A stretch of 19,099 bases of DNA from Candidatus Moanibacter sp. (GTDB taxonomy: Bacteria; Verrucomicrobiota; Verrucomicrobiia; Opitutales; UBA2987): assembly GCA_965215885.1 (NCBI GenBank), contig CBDCEW010000007.1, positions 1-19,099 of the forward strand, read 5' to 3'. How positions within the stretch are numbered: position 1 is the stretch's first letter; each line of letters begins with the position of its first letter. This document shows, piece by piece, positions 1-3,000 of the stretch. Made by a program: the position numbers.

Positions 1-3000
1 CAGTCGGGCAATCGTCGAAAGAGTGTGGTAGATGGCCGTCTGGGTTGACCGGCGCCGAAGCGATCCCGACGCATCGCAGTAGAGTCGATCCTTCGTCACG
101 TCGATGAAAACGTTACTCAGCTCGACGTTGCAGAAGTCACGCAGAGAAATGAAGACGTTCCGGTAATCGTAATTTTCGTAACCTTCCCGGCACGCATCAA
201 TGACGCGTTTCAGCCGATACAATATCCAGCGATCGACCAGTGTCAGGCTGTCCATTTCCATCCCATCGCGTTCAAGTTCGAAGTCGTTCAGATTGCCAAG
301 CAGGATGCGGAAGGTATTGCGAAACTTCCGGTAGGCATCGACTACCCGCTCGAGCATCAGATCGGAAAACCGAACATCTTCGGTGTAGCGCACGCTACTC
401 ACCCAGAGCCGCATGACGTCGGCTCCGTAGCGCTTTACATACCTCTCAACCAGGTCGCCCTGTCCGGATTTGGACATTTTCCCGCCCGATGCATTCAATA
501 CCCAGCCGTGGGTCACACAGTTCCTGAAGGGAGGGCCCGCCGAAAGGGCAGCCGCGGTCAATAGTGACGACTGATACCAGCCTCGATGCTGGTCCGTCGC
601 CTCGAGATAAAGATCGGCGGGGAATTCCAAGTCCTGATTTTGGTGCGGCACGGCGCGGTGGCTGAATCCGGAATCCATCCAAACATCCATTGTATCTTCG
701 CGGCGGCGCAATCCTTCGGGTATTCCCAGCATGCGGTTGAACTCCGGATCCGAGGTGTCAAACCAGATGTCCGATCCGTGCTTTTCCACCAGATCCGCCA
801 CCCTTCGGATCCAGTCGCTTCGCAGCGCTGGCCTGTCTGAACTGTCATAGAATACCGGTAAGGGCACTCCCCGTGCCCGCTGTCGTGAAATACACCAATC
901 GGGACGGCTGGAAATTGTGCCGCGGATCCGATTACGGGCCCACGCCGGATGCCAGTTTACGCTGTCTGCATACTGGAGCGCGACTTCACGAATGTCATCC
1001 AGGCGGACAAAGAACTGCTTGATGGCGCGGAAGACGAGCGGAGTCTTGGAACGCCAACAGTGAGGGTAGTCGTGCCTCCACTTTTCGATACCGAGCAGCC
1101 GATCTTTCCTTTCCAGGAGAGACACAACACTCGAGTTGGCGGCGAAGACATCTTCCCCGATCAATGCTTCGATTCCGCACTCTTTTGTAAACGCTCCTGC
1201 TTCATCGACAGGCGAAAGAACCGGCAGGTCGTGCACTACACCCAGACGATAGTCTTCCTCTCCGTGTCCGGGTGCAATGTGGATCACGCCCGACCCTGCA
1301 TCCATTGTCACGAAATCCGCTGGAAGGATCGGAACCATTCGATCCAGCAACGGGTGCCTAACCACCCTCCCGACCAGTTCGGAACCCTTGAACTCCTTCA
1401 CCGGGTTCCGCACGCCACCAACAACCCCATACCCGGTGGCGGCACAGAAGGTGCCAATACGGTCGGCCGCCAGGACGAGTCGATGTTCGGCTGGCTCCTC
1501 TTGTTTCCTGAGGCGCCAGATTCCGTATTCGGCTTCGGGATCAACCGCCACCGCCTGATTAGCCGGCAATGTCCACGGCGTGGTTGTCCAAATTACGATG
1601 TCGCAGGAGGCGTATCCGGCGCCGTTCTGCAGCTCAAACGGGACATAAATCGCGGGCGACTCGATTTCCTTGTATTCAATTTCAAACTCTGCCAGAGCCG
1701 TCTGGGCCCCGACGCTCCAGTGAACCGGTTTCCGAGCCTGGAATATGAGACCCCGGTCCACCATCGCGGCAAAGGCACGCAGCTGTTCCGCTTCGTAGGA
1801 GGGATCCATTGTGCTGTAGCTCGACTCCCAGTCGCCTGTAACTCCGAGCCGCCGAAACTGACTCTCCATGCGCTTCTTGTAGTCGTTCGCAAAAGCGCGG
1901 CATCGCTTCCTGACTTCAGAGGCTGGGATTTCGGTGGCATTCTTTATTACCTTGTATTCGACCGGCAGTCCGTGGCAGTCCCAACCCGGTACGAACGGGA
2001 CACGGTATCCGGCCATGGTGCGAGACCGGATCACAATGTCCTTCAGAATCTTGTTCATGGCTGTGCCGAGGTGCAACTCACCGCTTGTATACGGAGGGCC
2101 GTCATGCAGCAGGTAGACGGGCGCCCCTTTCCGTTCCGCCTGAATCGACTGGTAGAGGTCGCTCTGTTCCCAACTACTCAGAATCTCGCGTTCTCTGTGG
2201 GGCAGGTTGCCCCGCATGGGGAAAGGTGTTTTGGGCAAGTTCAGTGTGTTCTTATAGCGATGGCTCATTTCACCTCCTGGTGTTGTGTTCGGTAAAAAAG
2301 AAGGCCTGCTCGTTCTCTGAGCAGGCCTTCTTGGTGATTTGAAAAACTATTGACGCGCTTTTACGGGGCTCTGCTCAACCTCTGTTGAAAAGAAATAGAA
2401 ATAATAATGCCGCCGTGCTGCAGAGGTATTGATCCCTCAAAAGTAAGCGCAAATTGAGTCCGCGCGTCTGAAGTCGAATCTGTGCAAAGGCAGTTCATGG
2501 ATTGGAGGTAATTCTCACACTTACGCGGCTATGTCAAACGCGTAGATTATGAATGACCGCATCTGACAGGGTAAAAGGATTCCAGGAAGCAACTAGCTGA
2601 TAAGCAAGAAGATAAAAAAAGAGCTAAACAAACCCGAGGGAATCAGTCATGTTAAGATGGGATGAAAGACAAAAAATCTTACCAACTGAATCCTTCGATA
2701 GATCGTTTAACTCTGCGTCTGGTCCTGCCCGAAGAGCAGGAGCGATTCAATGATCTATTGAAACAACATCATTATTTACACAGTGCGGGCAGCGCAGGAG
2801 AGACCCTGCGCTATGTGGCGCAGATCGACGGGCAATGGATGGGCCTGCTCTTGTGGGGGGCCGCATCCTACCGGCTGAAGGATCGAGACGAATGGATCGG
2901 GAGGGACGGGGCGCAACGGCATGCACGATTGAAACTGGTAGTACAGAACCGGCGTTTTCTGATTTTGCCCGGGGTGGATCTTGCAAATTTGGCCTCCAAG

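Follow-up and report, generated by a model that had tools for sequence, protein, structure and literature searches.

We have analyzed a window of 19,099 nucleotides from Candidatus Moanibacter sp., a member of the Opitutales in the Verrucomicrobiota (contig CBDCEW010000007.1 of assembly GCA_965215885.1), and all coordinates given here are those of that contig. One end of the window is occupied by ileS2, a second isoleucyl-tRNA synthetase (IleRS) gene that matches TIGR00392 with 773.5 bits (cut-off 621.4) and that is located, together with its leader, on the minus strand. The leader consists of 298 bases (2269-2566), unique in the genome, between ileS2 and an IS copy of the ISAs1 family (2567-4460), of which the genome contains about 45 further full-length copies at 99% identity or more. 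The gene ileS2 is flanked by an IS on one side and by the contig end on the other. The genome-wide survey's note had assigned the interval 2269-2661 to the element; its part up to 2566 is indeed native leader, while 2567-2661 is the end of the IS copy. The gene upstream of the leader is the divergent IS transposase, i.e., there is no co-directional gene upstream, and an intrinsic terminator separates the leader ORF from ileS2. The features of the region are the following.

1..2268, minus strand: ileS2, second isoleucyl-tRNA synthetase (TIGR00392), 756 codons visible, running off the contig end
2273..2278, minus strand: AGGAGG, Shine-Dalgarno of ileS2, read from the sequence
2294..2311, minus strand: segment 4, 3' half of the terminator stem (2311-2298) and the remaining T run down to 2294 (predicted fold)
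2319..2332, minus strand: segment 3, 5' half of the terminator stem, of which 2327-2317 pairs with segment 2 in the antiterminator (predicted fold)
2362..2379, minus strand: segment 2, the last codons of the ORF, with UUGAGCAGAGCC (2378-2367) as the 5' strand of the antiterminator (predicted fold)
2384..2416, minus strand: segment 1, candidate anti-antiterminator, with one arm on each side of the Ile codons (2416-2409 and 2393-2384), both pairing with segment 2 in the ribosome-free RNA (predicted fold)
2394..2408, minus strand: regulatory codons ATT ATT ATT TCT ATT, i.e., Ile31-33 and Ile35 (Ile-Ile-Ile-Ser-Ile), read from the sequence
2361..2498, minus strand: leader ORF, 45 codons and stop, translated as MNCLCTDSTSDARTQFALTFEGSIPLQHGGIIISISFQQRLSRAP*
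2511..2519, minus strand: TGTGAGAAT, possible extended -10, read from the sequence
2532..2537, minus strand: TTGACA box 33 nt upstream of the leader ATG, a putative -35 element for transcription of the leader, read from the sequence

The ORF starts at the only ATG of the leader (2498) and ends with a stop codon at 2363-2361, and the Ile-rich short ORF announced before ileS2 is therefore real, with its cognate codons clustered as Ile-Ile-Ile-Ser-Ile. The spacing given for it also holds, with the stop codon 92 nt and the end of the T run (2294) 25 nt before the ileS2 ATG (2268). As a control for chance, we compared the ORF with the 2454 short ORFs of the genome that have up to 60 amino acids and end 5-70 nt before one of its 3770 terminator-like hairpins. 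Three consecutive isoleucines were present in 6 of them and at least 4 Ile per 8 codons in 8; among such Ile-rich ORFs the one before ileS2 was alone in having a called gene within 150 nt downstream. A scan for runs of His, Trp, Leu, Phe and other codons before terminators gave no convincing attenuator of a biosynthetic operon, the genes downstream being unannotated. Upstream of the ORF, the distance from the TTGACA box to the leader ATG (33 nt) is close to the 31-35 nt that separate TTGAC(A/T) from the leader ATG in seven thrS leaders. The scan for promoter consensus sequences reported a promoter-like site straddling the IS end and did not pick up the candidate extended -10. If TGTGAGAAT is the -10, the leader ATG would possibly lie only a few bases downstream of the transcript start.

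The terminator has a stem of 14 bp (2332-2319 with 2311-2298) and a loop of 7 nt (2318-2312). A strong hairpin was rightly reported at this place. Its strength was given as -23.2 kcal/mol; refolding shows it to be very strong, with -26.1 kcal/mol (z -8.11, with none of 200 shuffled sequences equally stable). A simple scan for consensus terminators did not list it because the stem absorbs part of the T run; a separate hairpin scan located it at 2327-2303, with -17.6 kcal/mol for a 9-bp core. As had been proposed, the last codons of the leader can pair with the 5' half of the terminator, and in the predicted fold the strand in segment 2 pairs with 2327-2317. The predicted probability that the 63 nt upstream hold the 5' half of the terminator was 1.00 for ileS2. 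For 500 control terminators the mean was 0.54 and only 1.2% reached 0.9 or more; the antiterminators of ileS2 and thrS are both within the top 1% or so of the controls. Taken as a whole, the antiterminator stretch had a z of -0.5, and 58 of 200 shuffled sequences folded as well. The end of the antiterminator strand coincides with the stop codon of the ileS2 leader.

We have also folded the leader with a ribosome placed at successive positions. Folding with the full terminator gave no discrimination for ileS2 and metG2, and the analysis was then run without the 3' half of the terminator. Under these conditions the probability that the 5' half of the ileS2 terminator is held was 0.8-0.9 for ribosomes whose A site lies on codons 22-37, and it fell to 0.3-0.4 for those at the stop or on the last codons. 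The same pattern, with the antiterminator holding the 5' half of the terminator when the ribosome is on the cognate codons and being lost near the stop, was predicted for thrS in seven genomes, i.e., the antiterminator is predicted to be masked once the ribosome has come to the end of the ORF. The predicted ribosome-free fold sequesters segment 2 and leaves the Ile codons in an inner loop (-15.1 kcal/mol, z -1.3, 22 of 200 shuffled sequences as stable). When the whole terminator is present, equilibrium folding favors it at every position of the ribosome (probability of at least 0.9), and the switch would therefore have to be kinetic.

We found similar leaders at two other synthetase genes of this genome. 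Their places had been correctly reported, before a second methionyl-tRNA synthetase (MetRS) gene, metG2 (C74:464-723, plus strand), and before thrS (C82:31148-31343, minus strand), and the existence of leaderless second copies (ileS1 on C100 and metG1 on C98) was confirmed as well; no terminator-like hairpin was detected within 400 nt upstream of either housekeeping gene. For each of the three genes the richness in the cognate residue is rare, being reached by 8 (the figure for Ile), 10 and 16 of the 2454 short ORFs. The spare synthetases are very diverged from the housekeeping copies, with 44% identity between ileS2 and ileS1 and about 35-37% between metG2 and the housekeeping MetRS.

The view that such leaders are not general in relatives fails for thrS. 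Among 62 relatives examined there were nine clear leader ORFs with a run of Thr codons (G001, G003, G005, G007, G008, G039, G066, G088 and G014), three weaker ones (G002, G004 and G006) and one decayed. These runs read, for example, TTTTRTAT or TTTTTTTRT. Within the same family a terminator precedes thrS by 45-51 nt in all eight relatives. A motif spanning ACNCGAACT to the terminator was found in 10 of 401 genomes of the order, nine of them at thrS, and the reversed pattern used as a control gave four matches. In the alignment of thrS leaders the arms of the terminator do not line up from row to row. For metG2 the only ortholog among 200 genomes of the order was that of G006, with 51% identity, where a terminator is found about 38 nt before the ATG and the ORF keeps a tandem ATG ATG and 'LIV.G'; the two proteins share altered signature motifs, H(I/L)GF and KI(G/S)KS. 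The metG2 leader has no clear antiterminator, its score (0.34) being below the median of the 500 controls. As for isoleucine, none of 89 regions upstream of more distant IleRS genes contained an Ile-rich ORF (the maximum was 3 Ile per 8 codons, in a single region), and 31 of them had a terminator within 130 nt. As a special mark of ileS2, the HLGT variant of the HIGH motif was considered and rejected, the nearest Verrucomicrobial IleRS proteins reading HMGT.

T-box riboswitches of Firmicutes and Actinobacteria respond to a shortage of the cognate charged tRNA by raising the expression of synthetases, often by way of a choice between a terminator and an antiterminator. The ileS2 leader would have the same task, but the T-box binds uncharged tRNA directly and needs no translation. 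The Rfam search gave no T-box match, neither in 1800-3200 (E<=10) nor in the loci of thrS, metG2 and ileS1 (E<=1). The best Rfam match in the window was Thr_leader (RF00506), which scored 25 bits where the gathering score is 55; this identity was rejected, being sub-threshold and aligning the terminator hairpin alone, on both strands. The leader of the enterobacterial thr operon resembles that of ileS2 in having Thr (and Ile) codons in a leader peptide and a terminator, but it precedes a biosynthetic operon and not a synthetase gene. In the pheM-pheST case of Escherichia coli, a short ORF rich in the cognate residue, alternative hairpins and an intrinsic terminator precede phenylalanyl-tRNA synthetase. 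The anatomy is the same, with another amino acid, gene and phylum and no sequence similarity. Besides, the ileS2 leader is 45 codons long, is probably nearly leaderless and belongs to a second copy of the enzyme and not to the only one.

Our analysis indicates that the 298 bases before ileS2 are probably a classical leader-peptide attenuator, i.e., a ribosome-mediated transcription attenuator that senses Ile-tRNA(Ile). This was the interpretation of the genome-wide survey's note, and it is supported by the rarity of the Ile codons, by an antiterminator within the top 1% or so of controls, by the folding at different ribosome positions, by the conservation of the thrS leaders in relatives and by the lack of an Rfam match. 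We infer that the transcript begins a few bases upstream of the leader ATG (2498) and that a ribosome would translate the 45-codon leader as the RNA polymerase moves ahead. With charged tRNA(Ile) plentiful, the ribosome would arrive at the last codons or the stop and cover segment 2 (2379-2362), segments 3 and 4 would form the terminator and the transcript would end at 2294. When Ile-tRNA is scarce, the ribosome would stall on ATT ATT ATT TCT ATT (2408-2394) and melt the pairing between segments 1 and 2; the free segment 2 would then pair with the 5' half of the terminator, letting the polymerase read into ileS2. Without a ribosome, segment 1 would sequester segment 2 and the terminator would form. 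The element would belong to a small set of the same build in this genome, with thrS (Thr codons) and, less clearly, metG2 (Met codons), of which the Ile and Met members would control an extra copy of the enzyme.

A different sensor is conceivable but rather unlikely. The terminator would still attenuate ileS2 in that case, and the signal would be read by an undescribed leader RNA that binds a tRNA, a metabolite or a protein, as in an autoregulation by IleRS, the Ile-rich ORF being a by-product of T-richness. Such a reading is consistent with the alternative helices, which exist regardless of translation, and with the leader ORF, which is long for a leader peptide and has no Shine-Dalgarno. Moreover, the Ile codons are located in a T-rich run of low complexity that biases the peptide in every frame (the TTG frame gives ...ALLFLFLFNRG). 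However, no Rfam family, T-box included, matches the leaders, and the cognate residue appears in the ATG frame before three synthetase genes, each time at the low frequency given above. The relatives keep both the frame and the Thr codons in their thrS leaders despite varying surroundings, and the coincidence of the ileS2 leader stop with the end of the antiterminator strand also argues against a different sensor.

It is still less probable that the element is a separate small transcription unit, for a small protein or an sRNA, that does not regulate ileS2, the gene being silent, decaying or driven from elsewhere, for example from the IS. The location of ileS2 between an IS and a contig end fits this idea, as do the promoter-like site across the IS end and an identical protein in another assembly that departs from the frame of the window after about residue 733 and ends at 787 amino acids. 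On the other hand, an ortholog at 91% identity is full length, with a complete C-terminus. The Shine-Dalgarno of ileS2 follows the T run at a distance of only 15 nt, which leaves no room for a promoter of its own. Diverged contigs from other sequencing runs carry ileS2 together with the leader. Two of them (about 91% identity) cover 4-2563 without an indel in the leader among those listed, and one (about 84%) has its listed indels only at 2277-2287 and at 2341, with none in the covered part of the ORF (2361-2453). Among the 40 differences listed, out of 530 between the window and these contigs, 26 were at third codon positions of ileS2, as would be expected for a gene under selection, and none was within the leader. 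The rank of the antiterminator among the controls and the same layout before thrS, which is single-copy and essential, also speak against an independent unit. Further searches for ileS2 orthologs gave at best 56% identity in 60 relatives (with one IleRS per relative), 46% among genome contigs and 56% in metagenome contigs queried with a specific piece of 127 amino acids. It is very improbable that an ordinary hairpin and an open frame coincide here by chance. A single locus and the many opportunities offered by 3770 terminator-like hairpins could be invoked for this, but an ORF of such content, the antiterminator and a location in front of the cognate synthetase are jointly rare, and the same logic is found at thrS and metG2 and is conserved in relatives.

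The leader-peptide attenuator that we favor for ileS2 would extend a known type of control. That synthetase genes can be controlled by a leader peptide is already established. In PMC1262725, pheST is named as a classical attenuator of a synthetase operon, and trpS and leuS of Streptomyces as predicted ones; pheST, trpS and leuS were the only synthetase cases, known or predicted, that we found in print, and the 2010 survey by Lopatovskaya et al. on the attenuation of synthetase operons may list more. The Streptomyces examples are from Actinobacteria and involve Trp or Leu, whereas the leader described here is from Verrucomicrobiota and involves Ile. By its title, the work of Vecchione and Sello (2010), cited in PMC4787780, deals with trpRS1, an 'auxiliary, antibiotic-resistant' synthetase gene under 'ribosome-mediated transcriptional attenuation', so that trpRS1 and ileS2 would both be extra synthetase copies behind a leader with cognate codons. 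Our literature search found no classical attenuators for Verrucomicrobia. As genes under leader-peptide control, ileS, thrS and metG appear to be new members of the class, which also appears to be new to this phylum.

More tentatively, and by analogy with trpRS1, ileS2 and metG2 might be inducible spares that take over when a natural inhibitor poisons the housekeeping enzyme, the leaders sensing the poisoning. Together with the thrS leader, these near-leaderless leader peptides could then be the Opitutales counterpart of the T-box regulon. To our knowledge, little is known about how synthetase levels are matched to charged tRNA outside the Firmicutes and Actinobacteria, with their T-boxes, and a few model cases. 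The conserved Thr leader before thrS in two families of the order would be a cis-regulatory family that is absent from Rfam. The Ile and Met leaders before the extra copies of ileS and metG suggest that the classical attenuator has been recruited for several synthetase genes of Verrucomicrobiota. In a phylum that has been little studied, the ileS2 element would serve directly as a reporter for tRNA charging and would give a handle on the purpose of second synthetase copies.

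The window's isoleucyl-tRNA synthetase gene is preceded by a leader with the layout of an attenuator, and this is bordered by an insertion sequence (IS).

Features of the leader and its surroundings
2268..1, minus strand: ileS2, isoleucyl-tRNA synthetase, 756 codons in view, then contig end
2278-2273, minus strand: AGGAGG, with the ileS2 ATG at 2268
2332-2319 / 2311-2298, minus strand: terminator, 14-bp stem and 7-nt loop, T run to 2294
2363-2361, minus strand: leader stop codon
2408-2394, minus strand: Ile codons ATT ATT ATT TCT ATT
2498, minus strand: ATG of the 45-codon leader ORF, MNCLCTDSTSDARTQFALTFEGSIPLQHGGIIISISFQQRLSRAP
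2537-2532, minus strand: TTGACA box
2567-4460: ISAs1-family IS copy (BLAST of 2269-4600 against the genome)
2662-4044, plus strand: ISAs1-family transposase, the gene upstream of ileS2

The protein matches the profile TIGR00392 (773.5 bits, cut-off 621.4), and since the genome has a further IleRS on contig C100, 44% identical, the one in the window is a second copy, ileS2. The contig resembles the rest of the assembly in composition (tetranucleotide distance rank 65 of 105). The HIGH motif of ileS2 (window ~2056-2067) reads HLGT vs. HMGH in the housekeeping copy; the nearest Verrucomicrobial IleRS proteins also carry HMGT, so this type of motif is a clade trait and not a special mark of ileS2. 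A further public assembly holds an identical protein that departs from the window's frame beyond residue ~733 and stops at 787 aa; a frameshift or an error of assembly may lie behind this.

The genome-wide survey's note had given the leader as 2269..2661 (393 nt). Only 2269-2566 is unique in the genome by the same BLAST search and everything from 2567 onward is IS, so the native leader measures 298 nt. Apart from this IS-derived upper end, the leader ORF and terminator stand as described, and their distances to the ileS2 start (leader stop 92 nt, end of the T run 25 nt) were correct. On its upstream side, the TTGACA box is separated from the IS end by 29 nt. About 45 further full-length copies with at least 99% identity, plus fragments, are found in the 6.4-Mb assembly (count from the BLAST table), and the genome is thus riddled with one active IS. 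A promoter-like site, TTTACC-18-CATAAT (minus strand, window 2546-2575), spans the IS end at 2567 and could be a hybrid outward promoter created by the insertion.

The terminator has a predicted energy of -26.1 kcal/mol (z -8.11), equalled by none of 200 shuffles; a simple consensus terminator scan missed it, and a separate hairpin-plus-T-run scan detected it. The latter gave 3770 sites genome-wide; for comparison we took 2454 ORFs of up to 60 aa whose ends lie 5-70 nt upstream of one of them.

Residue patterns among the 2454 short ORFs
III: 6
At least 4 Ile in 8 codons: 8
At least 4 Thr in 8 codons: 10
Tandem internal MM: 21
At least 4 internal Met: 16, two of them the metG2 copies

Among these, ileS2 provides the sole Ile-rich ORF that is followed, within 150 nt, by a called gene. 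A second frame with a TTG start (window 2375-2452, minus strand) crosses the same T-rich run and has its stop inside the antiterminator strand; as it reads LRLLLRDQYLCSTAALLFLFLFNRG, the run biases every frame. Inside the leader ORF, in its first half, a 7-bp GC-rich hairpin is followed by UUACUUUUGA (window 2447-2465, minus strand); speculatively, polymerase might pause here and so be synchronised with the ribosome.

In the predicted antiterminator, UUGAGCAG-GCC (2378-2367), contributed by the ORF's final codons, pairs with GGCCUGCUCAG (2327-2317). With the ribosome absent, segment 2, the stretch with these codons, would be sequestered by arms 2416-2409 and 2393-2384, on either side of the Ile codons (predicted ribosome-free fold -15.1 kcal/mol, z -1.3). 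We set the ribosome at each codon and folded only the RNA downstream of it. When the A site was on codons 22-37, the 5' half of the terminator was held with P 0.8-0.9, and this hold went down to 0.3-0.4 with the ribosome at the last codons or the stop. As modelled, the layout is that of a classical attenuator, 1:2 (anti-antiterminator), 2:3 (antiterminator) and 3:4 (terminator). As a control, we omitted the 3' half in 500 random terminators of -12 kcal/mol or stabler and computed how probable it is that the 63 nt upstream hold the 5' half (mean 0.54; at least 0.9 in 1.2%); the same computation gave 1.00 for ileS2, 0.90 for thrS and 0.34 for metG2. Two results count against the switch. The entire antiterminator stretch is not stabler than shuffles (z -0.5), and equilibrium folding with the whole terminator included preferred the terminator at every ribosome position; therefore, the choice must be kinetic.

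No ileS2 ortholog was found in 60 relatives (best 56% identity, one IleRS per relative), and the best matches were 46% in public genome contigs and 56% in metagenome contigs. The protein search returned one ortholog (91%, from a Logan contig), with a complete C-terminus and zinc-finger motif, followed by Terrimicrobiaceae/Chthoniobacterales IleRS at 53-54%. Diverged copies on other contigs do carry the leader. Two of about 91% identity cover 4-2563, with no leader indel among those listed; one of about 84% covers 1529-2453 and has listed indels only at 2277-2287 and 2341, hence none in the covered part of the leader ORF. Third codon positions of ileS2 account for 26 of the 40 differences listed (of 530) between the window and the diverged contigs. 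For ileS2, comparative evidence is thin.

For thrS (contig C82) we examined the upstream regions of 62 relatives. A terminator lies 45-51 nt before the gene in all eight same-family relatives (seven by scan, that of G002 by homology). Clear Thr-run leader ORFs were present in nine of the 62, weaker ones in three (G002, G004, G006) and one with the T run lost in G108; nothing resembling a Thr-run leader was found in the other 49.

Thr-run leader peptides before thrS, by related genome
G003: MSIITQTTTTRTATSRAGSFDCD
G005: MLIITETTTTRTATARAGSFGCD
G007: MLKIIHKTTTRTATSGAEAFGCS
G008: ..MSIITQTTTTRTATTMAGSCGCD
G001: MIFIFQTTGTRTTATTFRAGFFGGD
G039: MTIFAQMTTTTTTTRTIRVETWFCEE
G066: MTILARMTTTTTTTRTIRVETWFCEE
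G088: MNILVQIAISTTTRTFRLETWFRED
G014: ..PRTTATATAASGPG

A CGAACT block (Thr-Arg-Thr, ACN CGA ACT) is invariant in the nine aligned thrS leader ORFs (alignment A2; L085, L096, L100, L103, L109, L111, L123, L160, L161), with variable flanks. Between TTGAC(A/T) and the leader ATG lie 33 nt in ileS2 and 31-35 nt in seven thrS leaders. This spacing suggests that the ORFs are nearly leaderless and that the thrS leader of the window's genome begins at the second ATG (MHSTIEGTTPLTRTCRFGAWPVFA). Of 401 genomes in the order, 10 have a motif running from ACNCGAACT to the terminator, nine of them at thrS; with the pattern reversed as a control, 4 matches resulted. Antiterminators, which the survey's note had left to be worked out for thrS and metG2, were predicted for thrS, where beyond its control score the expected drop appeared in all seven leaders folded by ribosome position. 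Neither that folding nor the 500-terminator control gave a convincing one for metG2.

Among 200 genomes of the order, metG2 has one ortholog (G006, 51% identity), with a terminator about 38 nt before the ATG and a leader ORF, MIRSNQHQFRGLEKAHRMMSPRALIVAGLVVERT, that has tandem Met and 'LIV.G' in common with MNLYHSSLMMRLRRLIVGEGMRMRR of the window's genome. Both orthologs (L086/L163) carry H(I/L)GF and KI(G/S)KS; metG1 has HLGH and KMSKS. Mobile DNA frames metG2 (C74:1-2300, C60:1-2361), with a multi-copy repeat directly after the stop codon (C74:2175). Contig C60 has the same leader (99.8% identity); some 40 nt before its TTGACA box lies an insertion of about 1.3 kb, and the flanks of this insertion overlap by 11 bp.

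The leaders of ileS2, thrS and metG2 had no Rfam match, and no terminator-like hairpin was found within 400 nt upstream of housekeeping ileS1 or metG1. By its title, a 2010 article of Vecchione and Sello reportedly deals with a trpRS gene that is auxiliary and antibiotic-resistant and is controlled by ribosome-mediated attenuation. One study predicts that trpS and leuS of Streptomyces are preceded by classical attenuators, names pheST of gamma-proteobacteria as a classical attenuator case and gives T-boxes in place of these in Firmicutes (PMC1262725). In the literature that our search covered, leader-peptide attenuators of thrS, ileS or metG were not described; a 2010 survey of synthetase operons (Lopatovskaya et al., cited in PMC4833913) may bear on novelty. 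For Verrucomicrobia with leader peptide and attenuator, nothing relevant appeared among the matches listed.

Attenuation, as originally proposed for the three genes, is the best reading of the ileS2 leader, given the rarity of such ORFs, the antiterminator control, the ribosome-position folding and the thrS relatives. We regard a leader-peptide attenuator as very likely before thrS and as probable before ileS2, and for metG2 the chances are about even. The mechanism is not new; these leaders add to an already known type of control.
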